Positions 12,142-27,294 of a DNA stretch of 32,667 bases are shown piece after piece. Position numbers and translations under genes: made by a program. The notes under the pieces were generated by a model, which made no database searches, was not told the DNA's origin, and saw nothing but the letters and a program-made list of their open reading frames with translations. The stretch spans positions 1-32,667 of the forward strand of contig CANRQG010000003.1 in the NCBI GenBank assembly GCA_947632735.1, read 5' to 3'. The first letter of the stretch is position 1. The number at the start of each line of letters is the position of its first letter. This stretch comes from an uncultured Bacilli bacterium (lineage in GTDB: Bacteria > Bacillota_I > Bacilli_A > RF39 > UBA660).

Positions 12142-12918
12142 CTATCCTTTATTTTCTATTTTTCTAGTGTTGTTTATGGCCTTTAAAATATATTTTGTAA
12201 TCATCAAAAGGCTTGAAGCAAAGTAATATAAGAAGCAATATATTACAACTAAATCTACAAAGTTAAAAATAATACCAAATAAAACTAGAAAAGGTAAAAT
12301 CCCACCAATTCCAAAATCAGCTTCAATTCGCACTATTAAAGATGTTGTTTGATTTATGTCTGTTCTTTTTTCTTTTTCAACTTCCATCTTGCCCATATCA
12401 GCAAGACCACGCTCACAAGCTTTATATTTTTGATATATAAGTCGCATCAAGGTATCAGAACTAGATGCTAAAGTGCCTAGTAAAACTAACCATATAACAC
12501 CGCTTTCAAAAATAACTCCTCCATTAAAGTAACCGTTTATACCAAGAGATGTACATAATAAACCAACTAGGACATAGCTACTTATACTATCTGCGAACTC
12601 TCCAAATGGTTGCTTTTTCACTGAACGAGCGATATTTCCATCAGTACTATCTGATAAAACCCAAACATTAACTAGAATAGCTCCTATGATATTACATATT
12701 CTGTTTGGAATAATTATGAGAATACACGCTGATAATGCTATTAAAATAGAAAAATAAGACACTTGATTAGCTGTTATACCAATGTTAGAACATATACTAG
12801 AAGTTACAAAAGATAAAGGTCTATAAAATACTTGTGTAACTATTGAATCTTTTTTTCTTTTCCAATCTGGTAAGTTCTCTTTAAAATATTTAGGTGTATA
12901 TTTTTTATTAGTTTTCAT
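12142..12918 (-). CDS. CDP-alcohol phosphotransferase family membrane protein
   Basis: ITANQVS and DSTDGNIAR...GEFADSISS match the DxxDGxxAR-x-G-xxxD signature; the last Asp is replaced by Ser. Confidence 0.85.
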   Translation of the reverse strand: MKTNKKYTPKYFKENLPDWKRKKDSIVTQVFYRPLSFVTSSICSNIGITANQVSYFSILIALSACILIIIPNRICNIIGAILVNVWVLSDSTDGNIARSVKKQPFGEFADSISSYVLVGLLCTSLGINGYFNGGVIFESGVIWLVLLGTLASSSDTLMRLIYQKYKACERGLADMGKMEVEKEKRTDINQTTSLIVRIEADFGIGGILPFLVLFGIIFNFVDLVVIYCFLYYFASSLLMITKYILKAINNTRKIENKG

Positions 12919-14032
12919 CTACTCTACCTACTTTCATATAAAATCTTTCTAGTTTTTTTGCTTCTACTTTTATATTGAAGCCTTTTTTTGATACTTCATT
13001 GAAGGCATTACTACGATTATATTTATGGTTAACTTTTGAAATGGTTTCTGCCCAAGAAAGTTCTTTTTGCTTTAATGATAAAAAAATAGTTGAGTCCAAT
13101 ATTTTAGACTCTTTAGTCATAGAGGTTGAAAATACACATAAAAGGCCACTAGTTTGGGCTTCTATTCCTACAACTGGTAGTCCTTCATAAAGACTTGGTA
13201 ATAAAAAAACATCCATTACTTGATATAATTCATTAACATCTTCTCTTTGACCTAAAAAAAATACATTTTTTTCGAGTCCTAGTTCTTTTACTTTTTTTTC
13301 TATCATTTTCCTAATTGGTCCCTGCCCAACTAGCAAGAGAATTGCATTTTTATTTTGCTTGTAAATTTCGCTAAAGATATCTATTAAAAAAGTATGATTC
13401 TTTTGAGTGACAAATCTTCCTATATGACCTATTACTATCTGGTTATCATTAATTCCTAATTCTTTTCTTTTTAGTTTTCTTATTTTTTCATCATATTTAA
13501 ATTTATCTATATCTATGGCATTATTTAAGAGATATACATTTCCTTTAGCAAATTCTTTATTTCCAAAAAGCCATCTTCCTGCATATTCACTACAACAAAA
13601 ATAATTTGTGGCATAAACTTTGCTAAAGGGTCGTAAAATTTGCTTTAATAAATTTTTCTTCCATTCTTTTTTGTTAGATGTTGAGTGTGAGTGAGCTATA
13701 CGAATTGGTATATTAGCTTTTTTAGCTACTCTTAGAGGAAACACTGATAAGGTATTTATATGAGAATGTACTATTTTGTATTTTTCTCTTTTAAATATTT
13801 TCAACAATTCTTTGTTGTATTTAAATATTTTTTGATAAGGTGGAATTAAAAAAACTCTTCCTCCAAGTTTTTCTATTTCTTCATAAGCTATATTGGTAGA
13901 GTCTTCATCACAGATAAAATCAAATTGAATTTTATTTCTATCTATATGTCGATAGTAGTTCATAACTACTGACTCAACGCCGCCACCATTCCATTTGCCA
14001 ATTATGTGAGCAACTCTAATAGGCTTTTCCAT
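12908..14032 (-). CDS. GT4 glycosyltransferase (EpsF-like)
   Basis: GGVESVVMNYYR, RIAHSH, GHIGRFVTQKNH and PSLYEGLPVVGIEAQ. Confidence 0.92.
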   Translation of the reverse strand: MEKPIRVAHIIGKWNGGGVESVVMNYYRHIDRNKIQFDFICDEDSTNIAYEEIEKLGGRVFLIPPYQKIFKYNKELLKIFKREKYKIVHSHINTLSVFPLRVAKKANIPIRIAHSHSTSNKKEWKKNLLKQILRPFSKVYATNYFCCSEYAGRWLFGNKEFAKGNVYLLNNAIDIDKFKYDEKIRKLKRKELGINDNQIVIGHIGRFVTQKNHTFLIDIFSEIYKQNKNAILLLVGQGPIRKMIEKKVKELGLEKNVFFLGQREDVNELYQVMDVFLLPSLYEGLPVVGIEAQTSGLLCVFSTSMTKESKILDSTIFLSLKQKELSWAETISKVNHKYNRSNAFNEVSKKGFNIKVEAKKLERFYMKVGRVDEN

Positions 14033-14056
14033 TTTATTACCTTCTTAACTTATTAT

Positions 14057-14737
14057 TTATTTAGCTCCGCTTTTTGTAATTACTGCTTTGATTGTGTCAA
14101 TGATGCATCTAATATCAAGTGATAAACCCATATTCTTTATGTAGTAGTATTCTAGTCTTAATCTTTCTTCATATGTAGTTGCACTTCTTCCGTGCGAAGC
14201 CCACCAACTCGTGATACCTGGTAGCACCTGCCAATAAATATCAGGATTACCGTTATGAGACTCAAGTTCACCTCGAACAAGTGGTCTAGGTCCTATGAAA
14301 CTCATCTTTCCACCTAATACATTCAAAACCTGCATTAGTTCATCTAGAGAAGATTTTCTTAATAAGTTGCCTAACTTAGTAATTCGTGGATCTTTATCTA
14401 ATTTTTGATTTTCTTCCCATTCTTTTCTATATTTTTCATCTTTTAGTAATTCCTTCAACTTTTCATCAGCATTAGGTACCATAGTTCTAAATTTATATAG
14501 ATTAAATGGTTTTCCATTCTTTCCTATTCTTTCTTGCTTATATATTATTGAATGAAAATCACCAGTTAACACATAGCTTATTTTAACTATTATTGCTAAA
14601 GGTATTAAGAATACTAAACCAACTAAACTACATATGATATCAAAACATCTTTTAATAAAGAAATAAGTAGCTCTTTTAACTTTACTAATAGTACAAATAC
14701 TACTAGTGTTTATTTCCATACTTTTTTCATCTATCAT
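14057..14737 (-). CDS. Priming phosphoglycosyl transferase (small Bac_transf type), first gene of the left locus
   Basis: IKRCFDI, RIGKNGK, KFRTM, DPRITKLG, SLDELMQ, GPRP and PGIT. Confidence 0.93.
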   Translation of the reverse strand: MIDEKSMEINTSSICTISKVKRATYFFIKRCFDIICSLVGLVFLIPLAIIVKISYVLTGDFHSIIYKQERIGKNGKPFNLYKFRTMVPNADEKLKELLKDEKYRKEWEENQKLDKDPRITKLGNLLRKSSLDELMQVLNVLGGKMSFIGPRPLVRGELESHNGNPDIYWQVLPGITSWWASHGRSATTYEERLRLEYYYIKNMGLSLDIRCIIDTIKAVITKSGAK

Positions 14738-14841
14738 TAATGCTCAACTCCTAGCCATATAATACTATATAATTGATTCTTACTACTATACATCTGAACC
14801 ATAAAACTCACTTCTACTCCCCTTTGTAAATAGTCCACGAT

Positions 14842-14870
14842 ATTATAACATAACTTACTTATAAAAGCAA
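14842..14870 (-). promoter_or_regulatory. Sigma-A promoter P1 for the left locus
   Basis: Minus strand TTGCTT-17 bp-TATAAT with an extended -10 TG. Confidence 0.7.
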
Positions 14871-14934
14871 TAAAAATGTTTAAATTACCAATCATTACTA
14901 ATTATTACTTTCACATCTTGTTACTGTCTAGTAA

Positions 14935-14964
14935 ATTATATCACATACTTTGGGATAAAGACAA
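14935..14964 (-). promoter_or_regulatory. Sigma-A promoter P2 (leftward)
   Basis: Minus strand TTGTCT-18 bp-TATAAT with an extended -10 TG. Confidence 0.6.
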
Positions 14965-15082
14965 TTATATTTAAATATAACTTTACACTAACTTACATTT
15001 CTACTCAATATATATTATGTAATTAGCCCATATTGTGAAATAAATTTTAGCTTTAAAAACCACAACTTTTATGTCCTTAGAA

Positions 15083-15111
15083 ATTATATCATTTCCAAAA
15101 ATTTAAGTCAA
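15083..15111 (-). promoter_or_regulatory. Sigma-A promoter P3 (leftward)
   Basis: Minus strand TTGACT-17 bp-TATAAT with an extended -10 TG. Confidence 0.75.
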
Positions 15112-15122
15112 CGGATATCCGT
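15111..15122. promoter_or_regulatory. Perfect 12-bp palindrome ACGGATATCCGT, candidate XRE operator
   Basis: Touches the P3 -35 box and lies about 50 bp upstream of the divergent XRE gene. Confidence 0.55.
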
Positions 15123-15174
15123 AAATAAAAAATAGGCATTTTCGCTAAAATAAAAATGGAAATGAGGTGTTTAA

Positions 15175-15414
15175 ATGGTATTTAAAGAAGCAGTAAGTAA
15201 AAGAGTCTATGAATTATGTGACAAAAAACATTACTCTCCAAACAAACTAGCCGAATTATCTGCTGTAGCACCTTCCACTCTAGAGGGAATACTTTTACTA
15301 AAAGTAAATAATCCTAGTTCTTATGTAATCTATCAATTATGTAAAACCCTAAAAATAACAATAAAAGATTTTTTCGATAGTGACCTTTTCTTAGAAGAAA
15401 ACTTAGACGATTAA
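15175..15414 (+). CDS. XRE/Cro-C1 family helix-turn-helix regulator
   Basis: 79 aa; SPNKLAELSAVAPSTL...NPSSYVIYQLCKTLKITIKDFF; GAGGTG RBS. Confidence 0.9.
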   Translation: MVFKEAVSKRVYELCDKKHYSPNKLAELSAVAPSTLEGILLLKVNNPSSYVIYQLCKTLKITIKDFFDSDLFLEENLDD

Positions 15415-15415
15415 C

Positions 15416-15443
15416 AATTCCAACTAATACTTGGAATTTTTTT
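15416..15443 (+). terminator. Intrinsic terminator after the XRE gene
   Basis: AATTCCAA-7 nt-TTGGAATT followed by a T run. Confidence 0.6.
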
Positions 15444-15517
15444 AAATATTTTTTGAAATTATTTTATTTTTTTTCTATTTTCCTTTATAATATACACTTT
15501 AACGAGGAGGTAAAAAG

Positions 15518-16846
15518 TTGAAAAATAAAATTTGGAAAGTAGGAGTTTACATACGTATTTCTAGAGATGATATGTACTCTAAAGAAAGTAATAGTATAAT
15601 AAATCAGAGAAATTACTTAACAGAATACTTACTACAAGAAAAAATGGAAATATATGACTATTATGTAGATGATGGTTACACAGGAACAGATTTTAATAGA
15701 CCAGCTTTTATGCGAATGTTTAACGATATAAAAGAAGGAAAAATTAATACAATTATTGTAAAAGACTTATCACGTTTAGGCAGAAATTATATCTTTTTAG
15801 GAGAATATCTTGAGCATATTTTCCCACTTTATGACTTAAGAGTAATCTCTCTCAATGATAATTTAGATAATTTTAAAGATCCAGAATGTTTTAATAATAT
15901 CTTGGTTCCCTTTAAAAATCTTCTTAATGATGAGTATGCTAGAGATATATCCATTAAAGTAAAATCATCGCTAAACGCTAAAAGATATAATGGAGAATTT
16001 GTTGGTAGTATTGCCCCTTTTGGTTATTTAAAAGATCCTAATAATAAGAATAAATTAATTATTGATAAAGATGCCTCTAAAACAGTAGAATTAATTTTTT
16101 CTTTAGCTTTAAAAAATTATAGTTATAGTAAAATAGCTAGTTACTTAAATGAAATGCATATTTTAAATCCTGCTACTTACAGAGAAATTAACTTCAACCA
16201 AAGAAATAATCGCAATTACTTAAATAAGAATAATACTTGGAGTTCTTCTTCTATAAGCTCTATTTTAAAAAATCGTGTCTATTGTGGTGACTTAGTACAA
16301 TCTAAAACTAAAACCATTTCTTATAAAGTACATAAAATTGTGCGCAAAGATTTAGAAGATATGATTATTGTTGAAAATACTCACCCACCTATTATTAATA
16401 GAACAGATTTTAAAAAAGTTCAAGAAATTGTAAAGGAAAGAACAAGAGCAGCTAATACAACTGGTAGTACTTCTTTGTTTACTGGATATTTAAGATGTTA
16501 TGAATGCCAGTACAAAATGCGTAAGTCAAAAGCCGGTTATAAAGATGATCATAAAACTAGAGATTATTACTATTATTGCTCTACTTATCGAAATAAATCA
16601 AAAGAGTTATGCTCATCTCATCGAGTTACAGGTAAGTTTTTAGAAGAAAAAGTCTTTGAAGAAATTAATAAAAAAATATCTTCTTGTTTAAGTAATAGTG
16701 AAAAAATAGATGATTACTGGCTAAAAGAGTTTAAAAAATACCATAATTTAGATAAATTAAACAAAAATATGCTAGATTCTTTAGTAAAAACGATTTATAT
16801 TCATAATAATCTTGATGTAACAATTGTTTATAAATATGAACAATAA
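15518..16846 (+). CDS. Large serine recombinase 1 (resolvase, recombinase and Zn-ribbon domains; coiled-coil apparently absent)
   Basis: YIRIS catalytic Ser, YVDDGYTGTDFNRP, KDLSRLGRNY, APFGY and CYEC...YYYCSTY...C. TTG start after GAGGAGG. Confidence 0.93.
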   Translation: MKNKIWKVGVYIRISRDDMYSKESNSIINQRNYLTEYLLQEKMEIYDYYVDDGYTGTDFNRPAFMRMFNDIKEGKINTIIVKDLSRLGRNYIFLGEYLEHIFPLYDLRVISLNDNLDNFKDPECFNNILVPFKNLLNDEYARDISIKVKSSLNAKRYNGEFVGSIAPFGYLKDPNNKNKLIIDKDASKTVELIFSLALKNYSYSKIASYLNEMHILNPATYREINFNQRNNRNYLNKNNTWSSSSISSILKNRVYCGDLVQSKTKTISYKVHKIVRKDLEDMIIVENTHPPIINRTDFKKVQEIVKERTRAANTTGSTSLFTGYLRCYECQYKMRKSKAGYKDDHKTRDYYYYCSTYRNKSKELCSSHRVTGKFLEEKVFEEINKKISSCLSNSEKIDDYWLKEFKKYHNLDKLNKNMLDSLVKTIYIHNNLDVTIVYKYEQ

Positions 16847-18335
16847 ATGGTCATTTGGTATTTACCTGCGTCTATCAAATGAAAATACTAGTAATAGTAT
16901 TAATAATCAAAGACTAGTCATTAATAACTTTCTTTTAAAAAGACAAGATATTGAAATATATAATACTTATATAGATGAAGGTTTTACTGGTACTAATTTT
17001 GATAGACCAGCTTTTAAAGCTCTTCTTGAAGATATTAGATTAAAAAGAATCAACGGTATTATTGTTAAAGACTTATCTAGACTAGGACGTAATTACATTA
17101 GTGTCGGGACTTATATAGATGAATTCTTTCCTGCTAATAATATTCGATTTATTTCTATAAATGATAATATTGATACTATAAACTCCCTAAATCAAAATGA
17201 AAGTATTACGACATCATTTAAGAATATTATTAATGAACTTTATGTTAAAGATATTTCTACAAAAGTTAAAGCAAACATATCTTATAAAAGAAAAACAGGT
17301 AAATTCATATCAGGAAACACTCCTTATGGTTATAAAATTAATCCTAATAATAAATACCAATTAGTAATTGATGAAGCTGTTTATAAAAACGTTGTTTATA
17401 TCTTTTCTCTTTATTTAAAAGGTTATGGTATCAATAGAATAGTTAAGCAATTAAATAAAAAGCGAATTGTTTGTCCTGCCAAATATAAAAAAATTAATAT
17501 TAAAAAAGAAAACATTTATTGGACAAATACTACTGTTCATAATATTTTAACTAATCGTGTTTACTGTGGAGAGTTGAATAACTTAAAACATATTCATCAA
17601 CCTATTATTCAGGAAGAGACTTTTAAAAAAGTTCAAAATCTTTTAGAAATAAAAAGAATTGGCGCCAATAAAAGTAGAGAGAAATATCTTTTTTCTGGCT
17701 TTATCAAATGTTTTTCTTGTAAAGCTTTTATGCTTATTAAAAAAAGTAACACTACTAATTATGAAATATATTGTTCAACTTATGCTAGGATAAATGAAGA
17801 ACTATGTAGTAGTCATTATATTACTAGTAGATATTTAGAAAAAATTGTTAGTATTAATATTAATAATAGAATAAAAGATTTATTTATTATAAAGAAAAGA
17901 CTTTTAAATATAAAAAATTATATGAAAAGAAATAATTATTTAACTATTCTATTTAATGATAAAGACTTGATAAAAAAATACCTTTACAATGCCAATTTAG
18001 GAAAGAAACTGGTCTATGAAAAATGGAAACTAAAAAAATTTTGCTTGAGTGATTATTTCTTTTTTATTGATATCATAAATAAATATATATTTTTAGTAGA
18101 AAGATTAAAAAAGCTTCTTCTTAAAATAATAAGCTCTATTAATAATAGTATTGATGGTATTAGTTATTTAAATAATTATTTAAAATATAGAGATAAAGCT
18201 TTGAGTAGAAAGATGCTAGAATTATTTATTGACGTTATTTACATAAAAGAAAACAGTAAGATAAGCATTATATATAAAGATGAAGATAAAATTAAAAGTT
18301 TAAAAAATTTTATAGAAGATTTTTTTAGTGAATAA
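16836..18335 (+). CDS. Large serine recombinase 2
   Basis: YLRLS, YIDEGFTGTNFDRP, KDLSRLGRNY, TPYGY and CFSC...IYCSTY...C. The ATG at 16836 overlaps the end of recombinase 1 (ORF track starts at 16824). Confidence 0.92.
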   Translation: MNNKWSFGIYLRLSNENTSNSINNQRLVINNFLLKRQDIEIYNTYIDEGFTGTNFDRPAFKALLEDIRLKRINGIIVKDLSRLGRNYISVGTYIDEFFPANNIRFISINDNIDTINSLNQNESITTSFKNIINELYVKDISTKVKANISYKRKTGKFISGNTPYGYKINPNNKYQLVIDEAVYKNVVYIFSLYLKGYGINRIVKQLNKKRIVCPAKYKKINIKKENIYWTNTTVHNILTNRVYCGELNNLKHIHQPIIQEETFKKVQNLLEIKRIGANKSREKYLFSGFIKCFSCKAFMLIKKSNTTNYEIYCSTYARINEELCSSHYITSRYLEKIVSININNRIKDLFIIKKRLLNIKNYMKRNNYLTILFNDKDLIKKYLYNANLGKKLVYEKWKLKKFCLSDYFFFIDIINKYIFLVERLKKLLLKIISSINNSIDGISYLNNYLKYRDKALSRKMLELFIDVIYIKENSKISIIYKDEDKIKSLKNFIEDFFSE

Positions 18336-19914
18336 AGATAATATAGGTGCTTATCTTCGAATATCTCAAAGCGACAATACTGATTGTAGTAATAGTATAA
18401 TTAATCAAAGAAAAATTATAAATAATTTTAGTAAGGAAAAAGGCTTAAAAAACATAAAATTCTATATTGATGATGGCTATTCTGGTAGTAGCTTTCAAAG
18501 ACCTGGTTTTAGAATGCTCTATAAAGATGTTATTACAAGAAAAATAAAGACAGTTATCGTGAAAGATTTATCTAGATTAGGTAGAAATTATTTGGAACTG
18601 GGCAAGTACTTAGAGGAATTTTCTTCTTATGATGTTAGGGTTATTTCTATAAATGATAATATTGATACAGAAAATGATAGGAAGGAAAATGGTTTGCTGA
18701 TACCTATTAAAAATATTTTAAATGATGCTTACATAAAAGATATTTCTGCTAAAATAAAGGCTTCTTTACAGACAAAGAAGAAACGTGGAGAATTTGTTGG
18801 AGCTTTTACTTGCTACGGATATAAAAAGGATGATAAAGATAAGCATAAGTTGGTAATTGATAAAGAAGCTAGTATGATAGTTAAAAAAATATTTCAGTTG
18901 GCGAATTTGAATTATAGTTTAAAAGATATAGCTGATAAGTTAAATAATGACAATATCTTGTCTCCCCTTCTTTATAAAAAAGAAAGATTAAATTGTAATA
19001 TTCCATCTAGGTGGGAAAATACTAATTCTTTATGGAATGTGACAAGTGTTTCTAGAATATTACAAAATGAGATATATTGTGGTACTTTAATTCAGAAAAT
19101 TAATAATGAGAAAATTAGGATTGAAAATAATCATCCTTCTATTATTGAAAAGGATTTATTCTTAACCATTCAAAAAAAATATTTTAATAGTTACAGTAGC
19201 AGTTGCACTAGTAGTTATATGGGCAGTTATATTAACAATTACAATGGCAATTATACTGGCCGTTGTACTAATAATTACAATGACAATTATACTAGCAATT
19301 CTAAAAAAGGAAATATATTTAGTGGCTTTTTAAAATGTGCAAGATGCAATAAGGCGATGATTAGATATGCAGTAAAGGATGATTATATTTATTATTGTAG
19401 TACTTATCGAAAATCAAATAGAAAGAAATGTCAAAAAGTTCGTATTTATAATAGTTCATTAGAAATGCTTGTTTTAAATAAATTAAAGGAAAGAATTGAT
19501 AATATAGAGAACTTAAAGAAAAGTGCTTGTGTAACTATTAATGAAAAAAGATGGTTAGAAGAATTAAGAAATAGTAGAATATTATTTTATAAAAAGAGAT
19601 TAAAGGAAAAAAGTTATATAAAAATGCAGCTGTTAAAAGACTATGAAAAGAAAATTTTAACTAGAGATGAGTACCTTTTCTTTTTGAATGAGTTTTCAAT
19701 AGAGATAAGTGATATTGAAGAAAAACTATGTAGTTTGAATGATGTTTACTATTATCACTTTATTGATTTGTTTTTAAAATATAAAAATGTAAAAGTCGTT
19801 TCAAGAGAGCTTCTAGTAGATTTGGTAGAAAGTATTTATGTTTTGGAAAATGAAACTATTAAGGTTGTTTTCAAGTATGACGACAGATATAAGGAGATGA
19901 GTTCACTTTATTAG
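18328..19914 (+). CDS. Large serine recombinase 3, with a tetrapeptide-repeat insertion
   Basis: YLRIS, YIDDGYSGSSFQRP, KDLSRLGRNY, CYGY and CARC...YYCSTY...C, plus a coiled-coil-like C-terminal segment. GTG start overlaps recombinase 2. Confidence 0.92.
   Translation: MNKDNIGAYLRISQSDNTDCSNSIINQRKIINNFSKEKGLKNIKFYIDDGYSGSSFQRPGFRMLYKDVITRKIKTVIVKDLSRLGRNYLELGKYLEEFSSYDVRVISINDNIDTENDRKENGLLIPIKNILNDAYIKDISAKIKASLQTKKKRGEFVGAFTCYGYKKDDKDKHKLVIDKEASMIVKKIFQLANLNYSLKDIADKLNNDNILSPLLYKKERLNCNIPSRWENTNSLWNVTSVSRILQNEIYCGTLIQKINNEKIRIENNHPSIIEKDLFLTIQKKYFNSYSSSCTSSYMGSYINNYNGNYTGRCTNNYNDNYTSNSKKGNIFSGFLKCARCNKAMIRYAVKDDYIYYCSTYRKSNRKKCQKVRIYNSSLEMLVLNKLKERIDNIENLKKSACVTINEKRWLEELRNSRILFYKKRLKEKSYIKMQLLKDYEKKILTRDEYLFFLNEFSIEISDIEEKLCSLNDVYYYHFIDLFLKYKNVKVVSRELLVDLVESIYVLENETIKVVFKYDDRYKEMSSLY
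19186..19305 (+). repeat. In-frame degenerate 12-bp minisatellite (~10 units) in recombinase 3
   Basis: Encodes NSYS SSCT SSYM GSYI NNYN GNYT GRCT NNYN DNYT SNSK. Confidence 0.8.
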
Positions 19915-19998
19915 TAAAAAATCAGTAAAAAGATTTTCTTATTTTTGACTTGTTTTAATCTTAATTGGTGTTATAATTATTTAGCAAGTGAGGAAAAT

Positions 19999-20499
19999 AT
20001 GAGAAAAAAAAGATTTTTAATATTGGGAATATTTGTCGTTATATGGGCAGCAGTAATATTTACTATGTCTAATATGAATACACAGCAATCTAATAGTAAA
20101 AGCAAACTAGTTATATATCAGTTGTTAAGTTATAGTATAAAGGCAACTAATAAGCTTGGTATAACTAACAAACATCCTAGTGATGAAAGAATTTATCAAG
20201 TGATAAATTTATTAAATAAGCCTTTAAGAAAGTTGGCTCACGCTACTGAGTATTTTGTATTAATCATACTAGTTATTATGGCTTTACAAAGTCTAGGCAT
20301 AAGTAGGAAAAAAATTTTTTCCTTGGCAATTATTTTTTGTTTTATTTATGCTTGTAGTGATGAATATCATCAATCATTTGTAAATGGACGAACTGCACAA
20401 TTTAGCGACTCTTTAATTGATGTTTTCGGCGGATTAGTTGGATGTAGCGTTTATTTAATGACTAGCAAATTACTTTTTGGAATAAAGAAAGATAATTAA
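19999..20499 (+). CDS. VanZ-family membrane protein
   Basis: WAAVIFTMS, LRKLAHATEY and YACSDEYHQSFVNGRTAQFSDSLID. ATG at 19999 after GAGGA; extended -10 TGTTATAAT at 19969-19977. Confidence 0.9.
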   Translation: MRKKRFLILGIFVVIWAAVIFTMSNMNTQQSNSKSKLVIYQLLSYSIKATNKLGITNKHPSDERIYQVINLLNKPLRKLAHATEYFVLIILVIMALQSLGISRKKIFSLAIIFCFIYACSDEYHQSFVNGRTAQFSDSLIDVFGGLVGCSVYLMTSKLLFGIKKDN

Positions 20500-20521
20500 A
20501 ACTTATATGGATTTATATTCG

Positions 20522-20615
20522 GGTACTGGCTGATTAGCCAGTACCTATTTTTGATTACATACTGGCTGTATAGCCAGTAGTTGGTTTTGATTATATGCTA
20601 GCTACAGAGCCAGTA
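20522..20615. repeat. Three palindromic units in a 36-bp-period tandem array; the first can act as the vanZ terminator
   Basis: GGTACTGGCT-gatt-AGCCAGTACC (20522-20545), TACTGGCT-gtat-AGCCAGTA (20560-20579) and TGCTAGCT-acag-AGCCAGTA (20596-20615). Both linkers contain TTTTGATTA. Confidence 0.92.
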
Positions 20616-20939
20616 TTTCTGTATTTAAAATTACAATGTTATGGTTTGATGCTATATGTATATGAATAAAAAGTAATATTCTTTTTATAAACCAGTAAAT
20701 TTATCTGTTTATCAAAACAAAAAAATATTAAATTATTAATAGTAAAACATAGTAAGTTAAAGATTTGGCCTTAACTTTCTTTCAAAAATACCAGATATAC
20801 TGCTTATAAAAAAATTAAGAATGATATCTTGAAGAATGATGAAAAATTCTAAAATATAATTTATCATTTTTGCAAAAGTGTTATGAAATACTCTTATATT
20901 AATATTAATTATTTTTGATAGTAGACTATATGTAAAAAT

Positions 20940-20981
20940 AATAAAGTATGGAATAAAGTGTGGAATAAAGTGTGGAATAAA
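20940..20981. repeat. 12-bp tandem repeat (AATAAAGTGTGG) x ~3.5 just upstream of a promoter
   Basis: aataaagtatgg aataaagtgtgg aataaagtgtgg aataaa. Confidence 0.9.
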
Positions 20982-20982
20982 A

Positions 20983-21011
20983 TTGATAAAATTTAAACTT
21001 CATAGTATAAT
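20983..21011 (+). promoter_or_regulatory. Sigma-A promoter of the AlbA_2 remnant
   Basis: TTGATA-17 bp-TATAAT, followed by a GAAAGGAG RBS before the ATG at 21043. Confidence 0.75.
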
Positions 21012-21042
21012 GTAAATGTATTATGAAAGGAGCACTTATTTA

Positions 21043-21230
21043 ATGAATATTGGTATGGAAAATCAGGCTCTTGAATAAAAAGTAATGTGAATTAAAAGAA
21101 TGAATTGTTTCAGTAAGTTTAATACTAAACAAATACAGTGAAGGAACATTGTATTTTAGTGTCAAAATAATAGAACAGTAATCAAAGTTATGTAGTGAGG
21201 TTATTTTAAGAGATATTTCAAAATAGAAAT
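21043..21230 (+). pseudogene. Decayed N-terminal fragment of an AlbA_2 (Schlafen-like) domain gene
   Basis: MNIGMENQALE*K, then after a frameshift ELKE*IVSVSLILNKYSEGTLYFSVK...LRDISK*. This matches the AlbA_2 pattern (E..EFK...LN..GG.LYFGV) with stops and frameshifts. Confidence 0.7.
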
Positions 21231-21262
21231 GTGTATTAGAAAACAATTAAATAATTATAATT

Positions 21263-21290
21263 AAAAACACCTTAATTTTAGGTGCTTTTT
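21263..21290. terminator. Likely bidirectional terminator between convergent units
   Basis: AAAAACACCT...AGGTGCTTTTT hairpin flanked by A and T runs. Confidence 0.55.
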
Positions 21291-21346
21291 ATATTGTGCA
21301 TTAATTTGGAACAATTTTGTTTTTTAAGTCTATGCCATTTACAAGA

Positions 21347-22657
21347 TTATTTAATTAAAAACACAGCATATAATGGTATGGATTTAATTTTTGTAGTGGG
21401 ATTATAACCAAACTCTTTTGTACTTATTCGAATTGAATATTTTGGACTATACTCATTACTATAAATATTTAGACTTTTTGATTTAGTATTATCGGACGCC
21501 TTAACTTCTATTGGAATAATACCATCTTTATTATATATAAGAAAATCAACTTCAGCAGTGGCATCACTTTTCCAATAATATAAATTATGATTATTAGCCA
21601 GTAATTGATTAGCAACATAATTTTCTGCTATTACTCCTTTGTAAAGAGAAATATTATCATTTAATACATCTTCTATGCTTAAATTTAATATATTGTTAAG
21701 TATACCCACATCACTTAAATATAATTTAAATACATCTTCATCAACAAAGCCTTCCAAAGGGATTTCTGGATTTTTTACACAACGACAACAATTGACCATT
21801 CTACTAGCTTTTAACCAATCTAATGCAGTAGCAAAATCTCTAGCTCTAGCATTTTTTGATATATTAGAATACTGGAATTTTTTTGAAGCATTTGCTAATT
21901 GTGATGGTAATGAATTATAAATCCTATTTATTTTCAAAGCTTCTGCATCATTTGAAACATATTTATTCATATCATTAAAATAAGAAGATAAAATATCTTT
22001 TAAAATCAATTTATCATAATTAAAATAGTCATTAGATTTTAAAACCATATCTTTAACACTTTCAGGCATACCGCCAGTAATTAGATAAGTACGATAATAA
22101 TTTAGAGCTTTTCTATGAAGTGATTCAGAAATTGATTTATTTTTTTCATAGCAATTTCTAATAGTTTCTATAAGCATTTCTTCTTTAAAAGCAAGTAAAA
22201 ATTCTTCAAAATCCATAGGATACATATCAATCATTTTTACTTTACCTACTGGAAAAGATGCATTAGTTCTTTTTAGGCTTACTCCTAACAAAGAACCAGC
22301 ACATATTATTCTAACATTATTATGTTTTTCACAAAAATATTTTAATTCAGATATTAAATTTTCACATTGTTGAATTTCATCTATAAAAAGAATTGAATCT
22401 TTTTTGTCTAAGTCATAATTTAATAAGGCCTTTAATTGATTATATTTTTCATCTGATGTTAAACTTGAATTGTATAAATCTACTACATCAGTTCTCTCAA
22501 ATAAATTTACTATAATATGTTTTTTGAATTCAGATTTGCAAAATTCTTCTATTATATAAGTTTTTCCTGATTGCCTAACTCCTAAAACCATTAAAGGCTT
22601 AATAGAAGTCGTATTGTTTTTCCAATCTAAAAGATCATTATATATTTTTCTTTTCAT
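21347..22657 (-). CDS. AAA_14 ATPase with DUF4143 and PD-(D/E)XK-like C-terminus (ATPase 1)
   Basis: Walker A GVRQSGKT, Walker B LFIDEIQ, GGMP, KLYLSDVG, ENYV and EVDF...PIEVK. Confidence 0.92.
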   Translation of the reverse strand: MKRKIYNDLLDWKNNTTSIKPLMVLGVRQSGKTYIIEEFCKSEFKKHIIVNLFERTDVVDLYNSSLTSDEKYNQLKALLNYDLDKKDSILFIDEIQQCENLISELKYFCEKHNNVRIICAGSLLGVSLKRTNASFPVGKVKMIDMYPMDFEEFLLAFKEEMLIETIRNCYEKNKSISESLHRKALNYYRTYLITGGMPESVKDMVLKSNDYFNYDKLILKDILSSYFNDMNKYVSNDAEALKINRIYNSLPSQLANASKKFQYSNISKNARARDFATALDWLKASRMVNCCRCVKNPEIPLEGFVDEDVFKLYLSDVGILNNILNLSIEDVLNDNISLYKGVIAENYVANQLLANNHNLYYWKSDATAEVDFLIYNKDGIIPIEVKASDNTKSKSLNIYSNEYSPKYSIRISTKEFGYNPTTKIKSIPLYAVFLIK

Positions 22658-22700
22658 AATTACATCACCACATTAATGATATCATATTATATAATAATTA

Positions 22701-22853
22701 TCACGTTTTTCAAAGGAATATTTTGTAAAATTTACACGTTTTTCAAAGGAATGTTCAATGAAATCTTCACGTTTTCCGAAGGAATATTTAATTAAATCTT
22801 CACATTTTCCGAAGGAATGTTTAATAAAACTATCACGGTTTTGTAAGGATTTT
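22701..22853. repeat. Five 33-bp-period direct repeats upstream of ATPase 1, overlapping its -35 box
   Basis: CAC starts at 22702, 22735, 22768, 22801 and 22834; core TCACGTTTTYCRAAGGAAT. Minus-strand promoter TTGAAA (22713-22708)-16 bp-TATAAT (22691-22686). Confidence 0.92.
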
Positions 22854-22929
22854 TCTGTTTTTGTTGATAAAACTGTGTGTAGTTTTTATTAAATATTTAC
22901 TTAAAATTTGTTGTTTTTTTTATGTCTTG

Positions 22930-22951
22930 GTACTGGCTATATAGCCAGTAC
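22930..22951. repeat. Perfect 22-bp palindrome GTACTGGCTATATAGCCAGTAC (copy 4), followed by T6
   Basis: Read directly; identical to 25388-25409. Confidence 0.95.
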
Positions 22952-22957
22952 TTTTTT

Positions 22958-23645
22958 GTGCGAGAAAACTCCCAGATAGTCTGGGAGTTCGGTAGAGCTT
23001 TAGCGATGAGTCTTTAAAATAAAAGCTCCTTTTGCTATACTGAATTTGGTCTGTCAGTAATAAAAAAGCAAAAGGAGGTCAAACCAATGGATGACAAACA
23101 TACTTTATCACATACAACGTGGAATTGCAAATACCATATAGTATTTGCACCAAAATATAGGAGAAGAGTATTCTATAGTGAAAATAGATTAGAGATAGGA
23201 CAAATACTAAGAGAATTATGTAAATGGAAAGGTGTGAATATAGTGAATGCAGAAGTATGCCCAGACCATATACATATGTTGTTAGAAATACCACCGAAAA
23301 TAAGTGTATCAAGTTTTATGGGATTTTTGAAAGGAAAAAGTAGCCTAATGATATATGAGAGATGGGGAAATATGAAATTCAAATATAGAAATAGAGAATT
23401 TTGGTGTAGAGGATACTATGTTGATACAGTAGGAAAAAATGAACAAAAAATAAAGGAATATATAGATAAGCAATTAAGAGAAGACCATATGGCAGAACAA
23501 CTAACATTAGAAAAGTTAGACCCGTTTACGGGAAGCAAGTATTAGAAATGCAAATGACAGACCACGGAGCGCTGTAAAGCGTGCAGTTGCAGAAAGCCTT
23601 ATAGGCTTGGGAGAAAATCTACCAGCTTAGCTGGTAGATTTTTAT
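22958..23645 (+). mobile_element. IS200-group insertion sequence (tnpA only); ends approximate
   Basis: Y1 transposase flanked by subterminal hairpins AACTCCCAGA-tag-TCTGGGAGTT (22967-22989) and AAAATCTACCAGC-tta-GCTGGTAGATTTT (23614-23642). No terminal inverted repeats. Confidence 0.88.
23087..23545 (+). CDS. tnpA: IS200/IS605-family Y1 HUH transposase
   Basis: YHIVFAPKYRR, DHIHML (HUH), FLKGKSS, FWCRGYYVDTVG and IKEYIDKQ (catalytic Tyr). Confidence 0.96.
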   Translation: MDDKHTLSHTTWNCKYHIVFAPKYRRRVFYSENRLEIGQILRELCKWKGVNIVNAEVCPDHIHMLLEIPPKISVSSFMGFLKGKSSLMIYERWGNMKFKYRNREFWCRGYYVDTVGKNEQKIKEYIDKQLREDHMAEQLTLEKLDPFTGSKY

Positions 23646-23870
23646 CTGATTAATATAATAAGTTTATTAGATCGTGATGCGTTTATTTTTTGCATAAGTG
23701 TACAATATTTCTTCTGAAAAGTGTACAATCTTAGTAATAATATATTTTTATTGAAGAAAATGAATTATAATAACTTAGTAAAAAAAAAATATAAAACTAG
23801 ATTATTTAGCTAAATTAAGTTATTTTACAATTTTTTAGGAAAATATTTTCAAAAGTTATATTATTTATTT

Positions 23871-23953
23871 ACTGAACAAAAATGTTAAATAGTCAAAAAT
23901 TGTTCACTTAACTGAACGATTTTGTTGACTTTAGTAAAATTGTTCACTATAAT
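23871..23953 (+). promoter_or_regulatory. ATPase 2 promoter overlapped by two 40-bp direct repeats with TGAAC/GTTCA inverted half-sites
   Basis: ACTGAAC at 23871 and 23911; TGTTCACT at 23901 and 23941; TTGACT (23925)-17 bp-TATAAT (23948). Confidence 0.8.
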
Positions 23954-23976
23954 TTAGTTGTGAGGTGATTAGAAAC

Positions 23977-25170
23977 ATGATTGTTAGAGAAAAATATTTG
24001 AATAAGATAAGAGGCTTTTATGAATCTGATTTAATTAAAATAATAGTTGGTATTCGTAGAAGTGGTAAATCTATTATTTTAGAACAAATAATGAATGAAA
24101 TAAAACAAAAATCAAATAATATTATATATTTGAACTTTGAAGATGAACGTGTTGTTTCTAATATTTATGATGATGAAAAATTACTCAAATATGTAGAAGA
24201 AAATAGAAAAGAAGGAAAATGCTATATATTTTTAGATGAAATACAAGAAATTACCAATTGGAATCTTGCTGTCAAAACATTAAGACTTCATAATAATTCA
24301 GTTTTTATTACTGGTAGTAATTCAAAGCTTTTATCGAAAGAATATACTGATGCATTTAGTGGAAGATATGTATCTTTTAGAGTAAGGCCATTTGTCTATA
24401 AAGAAATATTAGAATATTCCGAAGAGTTAAAAAAAGAAGTTTCTATATCTGATTATTTGATATGGGGTGGTTTTCCAAAAAGATTTGAATTTAATAATAA
24501 TGACATGATAACCTATTTAACAGATTTAAATAATTCTATAATAGTTAAGGATTTAATAGTCAGATTTAAAATAAAGAATGAAGAATTATTTAAAAGAATT
24601 GTTAATTACGTATTAGTATCTAATTCTAGAGTCTTCTCTTCCAGGTCGATTGAAGCATATCTAAAAAGCAATAATATTAAAGGTTCTATTAATACGATAA
24701 TTAAATATTTAGAATATTTGGAAAAAGCATACGTTATTAATAGAATAAAACCATATTCTAGAAAATCAAAAGAAGAATTAGAATATTATTATAAAATATA
24801 TAATGAAGATGTATCCTTTAATTCATTAAGATGTTTTAATAATAGATATGATTTAAGTCATAATTTAGAAAATATAGTTTATAATGAATTAATATTTATG
24901 GACTATGATTTAAAAGTTTTAAATAATGAAAACAATGGTAAAGAAATAGATTTTATTGCTGCTAAAGATGGTAAGGAATATTATATACAAGTAGCATATA
25001 GTGTTGAAGATGAAAAAGCTTATAATAGAGAATTTAGTGCTTTTGCAAACATTGATAATAACCAGAAGAAAATATTGATAACTAATGATGAAATAGATTA
25101 CTCTACTAGTACTGTTACACACTTAAAATTAAAAGATTTTTTACTACTTGATTCTCTTGATAAGATTTAA
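23977..25170 (+). CDS. AAA_14 ATPase with DUF4143 (ATPase 2, divergent from ATPase 1)
   Basis: GIRRSGKS, IFLDEIQ, TGSNS, GGFP, ENIV and EIDF...YIQV. The ATG at 23977 after GAGGTG is preferred over the GTG at 23965. Confidence 0.92.
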   Translation: MIVREKYLNKIRGFYESDLIKIIVGIRRSGKSIILEQIMNEIKQKSNNIIYLNFEDERVVSNIYDDEKLLKYVEENRKEGKCYIFLDEIQEITNWNLAVKTLRLHNNSVFITGSNSKLLSKEYTDAFSGRYVSFRVRPFVYKEILEYSEELKKEVSISDYLIWGGFPKRFEFNNNDMITYLTDLNNSIIVKDLIVRFKIKNEELFKRIVNYVLVSNSRVFSSRSIEAYLKSNNIKGSINTIIKYLEYLEKAYVINRIKPYSRKSKEELEYYYKIYNEDVSFNSLRCFNNRYDLSHNLENIVYNELIFMDYDLKVLNNENNGKEIDFIAAKDGKEYYIQVAYSVEDEKAYNREFSAFANIDNNQKKILITNDEIDYSTSTVTHLKLKDFLLLDSLDKI

Positions 25171-25235
25171 TAAAATTATTTATACATAAATATTTATATA
25201 GATAGAAAACAAATTCATAAATACTTTTACTCACG

Positions 25236-25260
25236 AGGCGTTTACTTTAGACGCTTTTTT
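25236..25260 (+). terminator. Intrinsic terminator after ATPase 2
   Basis: AGGCGTTTA-ctt-TAGACGCTT followed by a T run. Confidence 0.7.
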
Positions 25261-25265
25261 GTTTT

Positions 25266-25414
25266 TCATTTTTCAAAGGAATATCTAATTAAAACCTCAT
25301 GTCTTTGAAGAAATATTTTATTCTAGTTGAAAAAAGCCTATAATTCTTTGTAAATAATTTACCTAAATTAGTTTTTTTTATGCTTAGGTACTGGCTATAT
25401 AGCCAGTACTTTTT
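25266..25414. repeat. Degenerate copy of the 22770-22957 module: two worn 33-bp units, AT spacer, palindrome copy 5 (25388-25409)
   Basis: TTTTTCAAAGGAATATCTAATTAAA matches the 33-bp unit. AAATAATTTACCTAAATTAGTTTTTTTTATG..GGTACTGGCTATATAGCCAGTACTTTTT parallels 22891-22957. Confidence 0.85.
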
Positions 25415-25483
25415 CCATTTTTAAACTTTAAACACCAGCATGGGCTTGTTATCTAAAAAATAACTTTAAGGAGGTAGTTTACT

Positions 25484-26158
25484 ATGGATAGTGATATGAC
25501 TATAAACGATGTTTCAGTATTTATAACTATAAAAAAAGTGACTTACTCGTTTATAAAAAGATTATTTGACATAGTTTGCTCTCTTGTGGGAATCATCTTC
25601 TTAATACCGCTATCAATAATAATTAAAATTTCTTATATTTTAATGGGTGATTTTCATTCTATTTTCTTTACGCAAAATAGAATTGGTAAAAATGGTAAAG
25701 AATTTAAATTTTTCAAGTTTAGAACTATGGTAGTTAATGCTGATGAAGTTTTATTCAAACTTTTAAAAGAAGATAAAGAAATGGCTAAGGAATATAAGAA
25801 AAATAGAAAATTAAAGAATGATCCTAGAATTACAAAATTAGGAAAAATATTAAGGAGAACATCAATTGATGAACTACCACAATTAATTAATGTTTTTCTT
25901 GGCAATATGACTATGATTGGAAATAGACCTTATTTACCAAGAGAAAAAGAAGATATGGGCAAATATTATAAAGATATCATAAAAACAAAGCCAGGAATAA
26001 CAGGATATTGGCAAGTATCAGGAAAGAAGAATGCTACATTTCAAAAAAGACTAGAACTTGAAAGTTTTTATTCCAAAAATTGTGGTTTAAAGATGGATAT
26101 CAAAATATTTTTTAAAACATTTGGAGCTGTCGTTAAAGGCCACGGAGCTGATGAGTAA
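25484..26158 (+). CDS. Priming phosphoglycosyl transferase, first gene of the right locus (paralog of 14057..14737)
   Basis: IKRLFDI, KFRTM, DPRITKLG, SIDELPQ and KPGITGYWQVSG; AAGGAGGT RBS. Confidence 0.94.
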   Translation: MDSDMTINDVSVFITIKKVTYSFIKRLFDIVCSLVGIIFLIPLSIIIKISYILMGDFHSIFFTQNRIGKNGKEFKFFKFRTMVVNADEVLFKLLKEDKEMAKEYKKNRKLKNDPRITKLGKILRRTSIDELPQLINVFLGNMTMIGNRPYLPREKEDMGKYYKDIIKTKPGITGYWQVSGKKNATFQKRLELESFYSKNCGLKMDIKIFFKTFGAVVKGHGADE

Positions 26159-26160
26159 TT

Positions 26161-27294
26161 ATGAAAATAGCAATGATAGGTCAAAAACGAATACCATCTC
26201 GTGAAGGTGGTGTTGAAATAGTAGTAGAAGAATTGGCTACGAGAATGGCCAAATTAGGATATGAAGTTACTTGCTACAATAGAAAAGGAAAAAATGTTTT
26301 GGATAAAAATGAGAAAGTTCAAAAAATAAAAGAATACAAAGGAGTAAAAATAAAAGAAGTTTTAACAATAGATAAAAAAGGGCTAGCTGCTATGACCTCC
26401 TCTTTTTTTGGAACGATAAAAATTCTTTTTTCAGATGCCAATGTTGTTCATTATCACGCTGAAGGTCCGTGTGCTATGATACCACTTATCAAATTTTTTT
26501 CTAGAAAAAAAATAATTGCAACAATACACGGATTAGATTGGCAAAGAGCTAAATGGGGAACAGGTTTTGCATCTAGATATATAAAATTCGGCGAAAAAAT
26601 GGCTGCAAAATATGCTGATGAAGTAATTGTTTTGAGTTTAAATGTTCAGAACTATTTTAAAGAAGTATATAATCGTGAGACAAAATTTATATCAAACGGA
26701 GTTAGTAAACCGAATATTTTGAAAGCAAATATAATAACACAAAAATATAATATAAAAAAAGATGATTATATTTTATTTCTAGGAAGGATTGTACCTGAAA
26801 AAGGTATTCATTACTTAATAAATGCATTCAATAATATTAAAACTAATAAAAAATTAGTTATAAGTGGAGCTGCAAGCGATACAGAATCTTATTATATGAA
26901 ATTAAAAAAGCTAGCTAATAATAATGAAAATATAATTTTTACGGGCTTTGTCAAAGGCAGAGAATTAGAAGAATTATATAGTAATGCATATTTGTATGTA
27001 TTACCAAGTGATTTGGAAGGAATGCCCCTTTCACTTCTTGAAGCAATGAGTTATGGAAATTGTTGTTTAACATCTGATATTCCAGAATGTAGCAATGTTA
27101 TAGACAATTATGGAATTACTTTTAAAAAAGGAAATGAAAAAGATTTGCAAAAGGAATTAGCAAATTTATTAGATAACAAAAAGCTTGTTGATAAATATAA
27201 AGAAAATTCAAGAGACTATATTCTTAGCAAATATAACTGGAATAAGGTTGTTGAAACTACTATCGAACTTTACAATGAGGTGACTTCTAAATGA
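26161..27294 (+). CDS. GT4 glycosyltransferase
   Basis: PSREGGVE, HGLDWQRAKW, GRIVPEKG and PSDLEGMPLSLLEAM. Confidence 0.92.
   Translation: MKIAMIGQKRIPSREGGVEIVVEELATRMAKLGYEVTCYNRKGKNVLDKNEKVQKIKEYKGVKIKEVLTIDKKGLAAMTSSFFGTIKILFSDANVVHYHAEGPCAMIPLIKFFSRKKIIATIHGLDWQRAKWGTGFASRYIKFGEKMAAKYADEVIVLSLNVQNYFKEVYNRETKFISNGVSKPNILKANIITQKYNIKKDDYILFLGRIVPEKGIHYLINAFNNIKTNKKLVISGAASDTESYYMKLKKLANNNENIIFTGFVKGRELEELYSNAYLYVLPSDLEGMPLSLLEAMSYGNCCLTSDIPECSNVIDNYGITFKKGNEKDLQKELANLLDNKKLVDKYKENSRDYILSKYNWNKVVETTIELYNEVTSK

Follow-up and report, generated by a model that had tools for sequence, protein, structure and literature searches.

Three tandem large serine recombinase genes and a vanZ gene form a conserved 5-kb module where two outward-facing polysaccharide clusters join in an uncultured Bacilli bacterium

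We analysed a 32,667-bp stretch of DNA (referred to as the window here), which is the complete contig C3 of an uncultured Bacilli bacterium and is also contained in rabbit-gut metagenome runs. The assembly (G000; 1.42 Mb, 126 contigs, 93% complete) has a G+C content of about 25-30%. The window carries two polysaccharide clusters that face outward from a 10.7-kb core, each headed by a gene for a Bac_transf priming transferase (PT). This core falls into two parts, of which the first is a sharply bounded 5-kb module (about 15450-20512) of three large serine recombinase genes, Rec1, Rec2 and Rec3 in their order, and a vanZ gene, with a helix-turn-helix (HTH) gene upstream. The second part, about 4.9 kb with two DUF4143 ATPase genes, an IS200 element, 33-nucleotide (nt) repeats and a palindrome, consists of later insertions. 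The core is a stack of accessory DNA at the place where two back-to-back clusters join, and not one device. A first-pass annotation of this DNA had noted the recombinases and an XRE-like gene between the clusters, and domain matches agree with this; the vanZ gene, the two ATPase genes and IS200 are additional to its list. Our domain scan with Pfam covered 29 open reading frames (ORFs) of the window. No gene remnants were found in the intergenic DNA of the core and no tRNA genes were found, and the sole match in an Rfam scan was the leader of IS200.

The three recombinase genes lie on the plus strand and overlap one another: Rec1 (15518-16846) encodes 442 amino acids (aa), Rec2 (16824-18335; 23-nt overlap with Rec1) 503 aa and Rec3 (18328-19914; 8-nt overlap with Rec2) 528 aa. 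All three contain the catalytic resolvase domain PF00239 (74.2, 80.8 and 90.7 bits, respectively) and exceed the cut-offs for PF07508 (Recombinase) and PF13408 (the zinc ribbon Zn_ribbon_recom), and Rec1 has a weak DUF4368 tail (22.6 bits, under the cut-off of 25). Rec1 matches the catalytic domain of TnpX (2mhc_A; E = 6.4e-28), and the serine of its RIS motif aligns with the serine of the TnpX RLS motif; the corresponding serines of Rec2 (RLS) and Rec3 (RIS) were read off the translations, without structural alignment. Among 72,556 plasmid records, the best annotated relative of Rec1 was TndX, with 39.4% identity over 91% of Rec1, and phage records gave no Rec1 match above 60%. Judged by their sequences, Rec1-Rec3 are thus TnpX/TndX-like large serine recombinases, and they miss the cut-offs of the curated families for Mpi, CcrA/B/C and XisF widely. 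The last gene of the module encodes a VanZ-family membrane protein (19945-20499, plus strand; PF04892, 77.5 bits; NCBIfam vanZ_1, 102.3 bits). In line with the first-pass annotation, which had seen no phage, relaxase or type IV secretion system genes, none of the 29 scanned ORFs matched a relaxase, Mob, coupling-protein, conjugation, type IV secretion or phage family. The small Cro/C1-type (XRE-like) HTH gene upstream of Rec1 (15175-15414, plus strand; HTH_26, 26.5 bits, cut-off 22) was found in G000 only.

We compared eight genomes of the genus (G000-G007). The recombinase trio plus vanZ is present in three of them, namely, G000, G001 (contig C4) and G004 (contig C47), and sits each time between outward-facing PT genes, the Rec1 side in G004 being cut by a contig end. 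The first-pass annotation had proposed to check whether recombinase triplets are kept beside polysaccharide clusters in relatives, and this link is real and conserved. A fourth genome, G002, has a frameshifted N-terminal stump of Rec1 (first about 121 codons) that adjoins a PT gene at the PT joint, and G001 carries a second, divergent and partial copy of the trio (68% aa identity) on the 3.2-kb contig C76. The trio was not found in G003, G005, G006 and G007, which are 66%, 87%, 95% and 72% complete, respectively. A PT gene is divergent from Rec1 in G000, G001 and G002, and on the other side the order vanZ, palindrome or hairpin, leader and PT gene recurs in G000, G001 and G004. Wherever a joint can be seen (G000, G001, G002 and G004), the module has the same orientation.

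The alignments between genomes define the edges of the module. G001 and G004 are 90.0% identical over 4,951 nt, in an alignment that opens 62 nt ahead of Rec1 and does not continue beyond 13 nt past vanZ; the gltX-cpsB region of the same two genomes is 85.5% identical over 4,102 nt. The alignment of G000 with G001 and G004 runs from 15450 to 20472 at 67-76%. Given that the alignments break off about 60-70 nt ahead of Rec1 and about 13 nt past vanZ and that the flanks vary, the conserved entity is a discrete 5-kb module, which in G000 starts downstream of the HTH gene. None of the 10 recombinase copies compared has an internal stop. The ratio of nonsynonymous to synonymous differences per site (pN/pS) of the trio was 0.24-0.49 when G000 was compared with G001 or G004 and 0.11-0.32 between G001 and G004, while gltX gave 0.15-0.35; purifying selection thus acts on each of the three recombinase genes, all of which are intact. 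The synonymous divergence (dS) of the trio between G000 and G001 was 0.96-1.07 versus 0.85 for gltX. Between G001 and G004, it was 0.35-0.39, about half of the gltX value of 0.71, leaving room for some later exchange.

The PT genes that flank the core are PT_A (14057-14737, minus strand; PF02397, 193.6 bits), which is divergent from Rec1 and heads the left cluster, and PT_B (25484-26158, plus strand; PF02397, 204.8 bits), which heads the right one. Their products share 114 of 223 residues (51%; E = 7e-79), showing that they are paralogs in inverted orientation, as the first-pass annotation had stated. Its exact inverted stretches are present as well: 14550-14563 (14 nt) is the reverse complement of 25646-25659 and 14477-14491 (15 nt) that of 25718-25732. 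Both pairs lie inside a 246-nt, 71%-complementary stretch of PT coding sequence and, by visual reading, encode the family motifs GDFHS and FRTMV, and they thus follow from the paralogy of the PT genes, as conserved motifs and not crossover sites. Apart from this paralogy, the ends of the core have no long inverted repeat, in accordance with the earlier reading, and searches of 14600-15600, 20450-21400, 22600-23100 and 25100-25520 returned only short, A+T-rich, imperfect pairs.

The three promoter-like sites that had been reported before the left cluster could be located on the minus strand within 14738-15174 (15111-15083, 14964-14935 and 14930-14901), but the overall count of such sites in 14000-26200 (102 versus 95.1 in shuffles; standard deviation, 10.6) is at chance level for A+T-rich DNA. 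By visual reading, we noted a candidate extended -10 element (TGTTATAAT; 14842-14850, minus strand) about 105 nt upstream of PT_A, and a similar -10-like motif lies upstream of the Rec1-side PT gene in G001 and G002. Terminator-like matches were enriched in the same interval (8 versus 2.4; standard deviation, 1.3), and four of the eight are copies of one palindrome. On the right side, a palindrome plus T run is followed by a leader before PT_B (25386-25483, plus strand); the stem (25386-25411) ends 72 nt before the ATG, which agrees with the hairpin of the first-pass annotation. This 72-nt leader is conserved before PT genes on contig C31 of G000 (98.7% over 75 nt) and in G001 and G004. A short remnant of the PT coding sequence, from about codons 173-186 (GITxWWASHGRS), is present in every PT leader and directly precedes the ribosome-binding site. 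The stretches concerned are 25412-25483 of the window, 8842-9100 of contig C27 of G000, 5565-6056 and 6760-6861 in G002 (C3, locus L014), and around 37000-37097 of contig C4 of G001. In G001 and G002, the relic is part of a small upstream ORF whose end coincides with the PT start; on C27, it is continuous with a PT_A 3' end, and in G002, a PT_A 3' remnant stands directly after an intact PT_B. These relics look like an old nested insertion or replacement inside a PT gene.

The PT genes are part of a larger region that is rearranged between the genomes. Neither cluster of the window has a wzz, wze, LCP or CpsB domain among the 29 ORFs, as the first-pass annotation had observed for the first three; the wzz-wze-cpsB genes of G000 are on contig C82 beside gltX, where the contig ends 91 nt past cpsB, and its LCP homologs are on contigs C17 and C75. 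At least two further polysaccharide clusters exist in G000. The one on C31, at a contig end, is headed by a copy of PT_B (93% aa identity) with the same leader, and the one on C27 begins with the leader, which is joined there to the final 51 codons of a PT_A-like gene (PT_A codons 176-226). No contig-end overlaps join C3, C27, C31 or C82. The 64-kb contig of G001 shows a longer arrangement: gltX-wzz-wze-cpsB on the plus strand is followed by 28.7 kb wholly on the minus strand (7.9-36.6 kb), which reaches from the cpsB terminator to Rec1 and has the trio as its first operon. This block contains a relative of the right cluster of the window (9.8-19.2 kb) with a PT gene, a further cluster with a PT gene, and then vanZ, Rec3, Rec2 and Rec1; beyond it follow a plus-strand PT gene and a syntenic relative of the left cluster (37.8-51.8 kb). 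In G002, cpsB is followed by the palindrome, the Rec1 stump and then, on the plus strand, a PT gene with its cluster, and an LCP gene lies downstream of these. Just past cpsB, G004 carries a leader relic in reverse, and G006 has unrelated genes there. The block behind vanZ in G004 consists of no more than a PT-Ugd fusion and an AbiE gene. The fusion is a 545-aa ORF (C47, locus L013, 5533-7170) that joins PT residues 1-167 in frame with UDP-glucose dehydrogenase (Ugd); it may be genuine, or it may have arisen by deletion or misassembly. Taken together, oppositely oriented blocks of a large, rearranging polysaccharide region meet at the trio.

Mosaicism extends to the PT genes themselves. G000 has type A beside Rec1 and type B beside vanZ, and G001 has the reverse with the same orientation of the module, so that a single inversion cannot account for the difference between the two genomes. 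When the PT proteins are aligned, about the first 60 columns sort independently of those that follow. The leader plus PT_B of the window (25373-26157) is 94% identical to the copy on C31 (14568-15352), where identical flanks surround a divergent patch of about 105 nt that covers the ribosome-binding site and the first codons, and both variants of this patch are also present in G001. The swap of PT types and the PT mosaic are attributable to ordinary recombination among paralogous cluster heads. We also considered the truncated PT genes (the leader/PT_A fusion on C27, with 7 nt of microhomology at its junction, PT-Ugd in G004 and the PT_A remnant after PT_B in G002) as traces of site-specific insertion, but rejected this reading, since the breakpoints are 10-20 codons apart and hence do not mark a single precise site.

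We next turn to recombinase relatives outside the genus. At E ≤ 1e-30, relatives of Rec1 occur in 125 of 201 genomes of the family (G000 included), at identities of at most 46%, and a search at the level of the order found three of 401 genomes (G000 included) that reach E ≤ 1e-105, with a best identity of 46%. A search of genome contigs with Rec2 gave two loci, one of them close. Of two scans of metagenomes, the first gave none and the second 46 distant loci, several with recombinase pairs or triplets. Six family loci have single or paired recombinases, and in the three that were annotated with Pfam the recombinase pair comes after restriction, HTH or toxin-antitoxin genes; directly after the pair there are housekeeping genes, e.g., for an RbgA-like GTPase, at L030 and L031 and a ParB-like gene at L028. 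An unverified 5.9-kb scaffold from a fecal virome carries three complete recombinase ORFs in tandem, after which a fourth begins. Tandem arrays of TnpX/TndX-like recombinases are common equipment of mobile elements. Homologs of the polysaccharide genes of the window (E ≤ 1e-8) were found at none of the six family loci and none of the 46 metagenome loci, the recombinases of which are 30-47% identical, and only the genus of G000 has such an array beside polysaccharide genes.

We classified the recombinases in a quick tree of 45 rows, from which 20 of the 65 collected rows were left out. Each position of the triplet forms a starred clade with a support of 100 across G000, G001 and G004, showing that first, second and third genes correspond to one another among these genomes.

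The part of the core to the right of the module contains several kinds of inserted or repeated DNA. Directly after vanZ, there are two terminator-like copies of the palindrome, (G)GTACTGGCT-NNNN-AGCCAGTAC(C) (20521-20579, plus strand; repeat and terminator scans). As TACTGGCT-NNNN-AGCCAGTA, the palindrome has eight exact copies in 1.4 Mb, against none for a reversed control: at 20524, 20560, 22931 and 25389 of the window, at 250, 9025 and 11160 of C27, and at 15317 of C31. It occurs in six of the eight genus genomes, with a tandem array of four at a cluster end in G002 (C3, 20996-21161). The copy at 22929-22952 (plus strand; found by the same scans) lies in 44 nt that are 93% identical to those of the copy at 25371-25414. 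The palindrome looks REP (repetitive extragenic palindrome)-like or terminator-like and is conserved in its sequence, beyond structure alone. As an attachment (att) site for the recombinases it was rejected, since G006, which lacks the trio, has eight copies and since it also scores as a terminator. The spacer that follows (20595-20863; nucleotide comparison) is repeated at the end of C27 (positions 1-270, reversed; 92% identity), where it is likewise placed after the last gene of a cluster and the palindrome. Further on, three tandem 12-nt repeats (AATAAAGTGTGG-like; 20940-20981) stand beside a promoter-like site with 11 of 12 matching positions (20983-21011), which has no obvious downstream gene before the end of the first ATPase gene.

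This first AAA_14/DUF4143 ATPase gene (21347-22657, minus strand; Pfam) has paralogs on contigs C35 (60% aa identity), C27 and C15. Upstream of it, a repeat scan showed five tandem 33-nt repeats (22663-22860) with a TTCACGTTTTYCRAAGGAAT core, each with TTGAAA on the minus strand; one more copy lies at 25268-25309, and similar repeats are found in G004 (C47, 5160-5232), on C27 and, in G001 (C4), ahead of a DUF4143 gene. The repeats could serve as an array of binding sites for a regulator. The next insertion (22953-23647, plus strand) has a Y1 transposase gene, tnpA (23087-23545; Y1_Tnp, 133 bits; NCBIfam transpos_IS200, 147 bits, cut-off 55), a structured 5' leader that resembles Rfam STnc490 (50.8 bits, under the gathering score of 56), and multiple copies in the assembly, given that both of its ends match those of contigs C55 and C97 at 99% identity, all of which identifies it as an IS200 element. 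The second AAA_14/DUF4143 ATPase unit (23854-25285, plus strand; Pfam and terminator scan) comprises the gene at 23965-25170 and a terminator-like site at 25235-25257. It is 97% identical in nucleotides (98.5% aa) to 9860-11290 of contig C46 of G001, where other DNA is about 75-80% identical, which suggests a recent transfer of the unit between species. DUF4143 ATPase genes recur between polysaccharide clusters, with two on C27, one on C4 of G001 and one in G006.

The polysaccharide clusters themselves were annotated with Pfam. The body of the left cluster (49-14032, minus strand) contains genes for glycosyltransferases of families 4 and 2 (GT4 and GT2), a CDP-alcohol transferase, a deacetylase, a Stealth protein, an EpsG-type polymerase, a pyruvyl transferase, a glycerophosphotransferase, a Wzx flippase, an FrhB-like protein, a cytidylyltransferase and a short-chain dehydrogenase/reductase. 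The right cluster (26161-32665, plus strand), which runs off the contig, starts with a GT4 gene, a membrane ORF and a GT2 gene; the genes that follow at 30024-32665, for a polysialyltransferase-like protein (PF07388), a CMP-sugar-type cytidylyltransferase and an HMGL-like enzyme, hint at a polymer that contains nonulosonic acid. The last 109 nt of the window (32559-32667) match C27 (16927-17035) in reverse at 96%, both being right ends, and C27 may continue the right cluster.

Regarding the role of the module, we give about an even chance to the reading that it is a resident integration/excision unit of the mobile-element (TnpX/TndX) type that has been at the PT/PT joint since before the species split. 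Its gene content, edges, conservation, purifying selection and family relationship are observed directly, and the best reading of these sequence comparisons is that selection keeps the module functional. From TnpX and the triplets of streptococcal integrative and conjugative elements (ICEs), we infer the activity of the proteins, their joint action and the DNA that they move. The three overlapping recombinase genes and vanZ form an operon-like 5-kb unit, whose three recombinases would most likely act together in excising and re-inserting a piece of DNA with its start a short way upstream of the Rec1 promoter. The moved segment would be at least the 5-kb module and may include the co-oriented polysaccharide block behind it. 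Any effect on surface polysaccharide would come from the gain, loss or re-joining of clusters and not from flipping of the core. The module may move only itself or the co-oriented block, or the host may have taken it over for rearranging clusters. The patchy distribution (three of eight genomes plus the stump in G002) is as in accessory DNA, and in other genera of the family, tandem recombinase pairs stand at the ends of regions that resemble mobile elements.

Several observations weigh against this reading of a resident integration/excision unit. Neither att sites nor a duplicated target, an empty site or a circular joint could be identified, and the metagenome contigs contain no credible alternative joint, the shorter side being below 30 nt in each candidate. 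In the absence of a relaxase, Mob, oriT-like or conjugation gene from the window, transfer would need help in trans. The same type of joint for all copies and a dS that tracks that of a housekeeping gene fit long vertical residence and give no direct sign of movement, and the block behind vanZ differs between species, so that an island is not conserved as a unit. Finally, in the quick tree, the three paralogs group together (Shimodaira-Hasegawa-like approximate likelihood ratio test [SH-aLRT], 92, unstarred) and not with the position-matched members of the metagenome triplets L055 and L056, and the tree therefore does not point to common descent from the published triplet module.

We weighed four other explanations, three of which we hold to be similarly improbable. 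In one of these, the trio is the integrase set of a polysaccharide island of 20-30 kb, whose cargo is the co-oriented clusters and which lies between cpsB and the PT gene of a canonical wzz-wze-cpsB-PT operon; excision would rejoin the operon (in G001, cpsB to the PT gene) and remove the extra clusters. This unlikely arrangement would fit the one-strand block of G001 between cpsB and a co-directional PT gene, the order of cpsB, Rec1 stump and PT gene in G002, the reversed leader relic directly past cpsB in G004 and the position of cpsB at a contig end in G000, and in Tn4451, tnpX is likewise the first, inward-reading gene. However, the content of the block varies between species and only the 5-kb module is conserved, no boundary sequence was found near cpsB, and the deletion in G002 is not a precise excision. 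Moreover, other genera of the family have recombinase pairs that face outward, toward the end of the element, in which case the left cluster would be the cargo instead.

It is equally doubtful that the trio is an inert leftover, i.e., the stranded integration module of a decayed ICE or integrative and mobilizable element that is now inactive, in a region that collects insertions. The uptake of IS200 and two DUF4143 genes by the same interval, the lack of transfer genes in the scan of the window, the decay in G002 and the four of eight genomes without a trio are consistent with this notion. However, three ORFs of 1.3-1.6 kb have stayed open in three species at a dS of about 1, with pN/pS values (0.11-0.49) similar to those of gltX, and the overlapping arrangement of stops and starts was retained as well. 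We also see a small chance, of the same order, that the triplet is a recombination system that the host has retained for its polysaccharide region, with targets in the conserved leader or the PT 5' modules that head the clusters, and that it captures, excises or reorders whole clusters between wzz-wze-cpsB and the canonical PT gene. This would be a capsule cassette system driven by large serine recombinases in a small-genome gut lineage of the Bacillus class, for which a narrow literature search on recombinase-driven capsule inversion found no published counterpart.

The weakest explanation is the programmed switch of the first-pass annotation, in which inversion or excision of the core would place either the left or the right cluster under a promoter and thereby make the surface polysaccharide phase-variable. 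Part of the antigen-switch idea stood, namely, the conserved link of the triplet to polysaccharide clusters and the purifying selection, here between outward-facing PT genes of three species; the switch mechanism found no support. The candidate conserved -10 element at the Rec1-side PT gene, the terminator-like hairpin before the vanZ-side PT gene, the presence of at least four polysaccharide clusters with one common leader in the genome and the swapped PT types of G000 and G001 would all suit a switch. However, no inverted repeats beyond the 71% PT paralogy surround the core or a promoter-sized segment of it, Rec1-Rec3 are not Mpi- or Hin-type invertases, the contig spans the entire core in a single orientation, no alternative orientation is seen across species at the visible joints, and the PT swap leaves the module orientation unchanged among PT genes that are mosaic in general. 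Of the findings that the first-pass annotation would have taken as refutation, we thus obtained two in part, i.e., a single orientation across species and homologous arrays in unrelated contexts. We further inspected Logan contigs from four runs of two studies. Contigs of one run (X1) are collinear with the window (14195-16016, 16014-19218, 19223-20047 and 20020-20648), and no credible alternative joint was seen, all 15 joints shown being unreliable with 20-28 nt on the shorter side; as such contigs are blind to rare variants, they give no evidence either way. A contig of a run from the other study (X5) matches the window rightwards from 14859 but has an unlike left part, and its 30-nt loose end matches neither the window (up to three mismatches) nor any of 84 loci; the flank on the Rec1 side may differ in another strain. 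The inverted stretches and the asymmetry of promoters are explained more simply by other means, and we consider the switch very unlikely.

If the triplet did move whole clusters, it would open a new way for surface polysaccharides to diversify in Firmicutes-type bacteria and would supply recombinases whose natural targets lie in polysaccharide loci. If the module moves only itself, it would be an ordinary, tidy small mobile element, and the finding would mainly document the mosaicism of the region.

Among known systems, the master invertase Mpi inverts the promoters of capsule loci in Bacteroides fragilis. The likeness to our locus lies in a serine-family recombinase and a genome with several polysaccharide clusters that have a common upstream leader. 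In contrast to Mpi, Rec1 and Rec3 reach only 28.8 and 39.2 bits with the NCBIfam model PRK13413 (cut-off, 272), with no match for Rec2, the proteins are 442-528 aa long with recombinase and zinc-ribbon domains, and no promoters flanked by inverted repeats were found. The CcrA, CcrB and CcrC proteins of the staphylococcal cassette chromosome (SCC) are similar in that several large serine recombinases are encoded together; in SCC, they move a chromosomal cassette, a possible model for a polysaccharide island, and SCCcap1 carries a capsule locus. However, the scores of the trio are far lower than the cut-offs (CcrB, 144.5 versus 900 bits; CcrA, 67.9 versus 700; CcrC, 70.9 versus 900), and no rlmH-type target was identified.

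Closer likenesses are found to TnpX (Tn4451/Tn4453) and TndX (Tn5397), the large resolvases of clostridial mobile elements, which include the closest solved structure and the closest annotated relatives and share the compact element. According to an excerpt on the Tn4451 recombinase (PMC5704250), this protein carries out excision and integration without a recombination directionality factor or helper. Differences from the Tn4451 family are the three recombinases in place of one, the lack of a Mob/relaxase gene in the window, an identity of about 39%, and a mobility that we would assign here by analogy. Serine-integrase triplets are, in the excerpted text of Ambroset et al. (2016; PMC4701971), the integration module at the ends of streptococcal ICEs, where they leave direct repeats of 2-8 bp and sometimes have extra coding sequences between triplet and target. 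Differences from these ICE triplets are that the scan of the window shows no conjugation or mobilization genes nearby, that no disrupted target gene or direct repeats were identified, that the unit is only 5 kb, with vanZ as the sole cargo, between PT genes, and that the quick tree, a comparison without streptococcal reference sequences, shows no position-matched grouping with other triplets. As far as that excerpt goes, the likeness comprises three tandem, co-oriented large serine recombinase genes with the same three domains, room for extra coding sequences between triplet and flank, and positional orthology among close relatives. Serine-integrase triplets are known as integration modules of conjugative elements, and here one occurs alone, as a 5-kb unit with vanZ that is fixed at a cluster joint and intact across rabbit-gut species.

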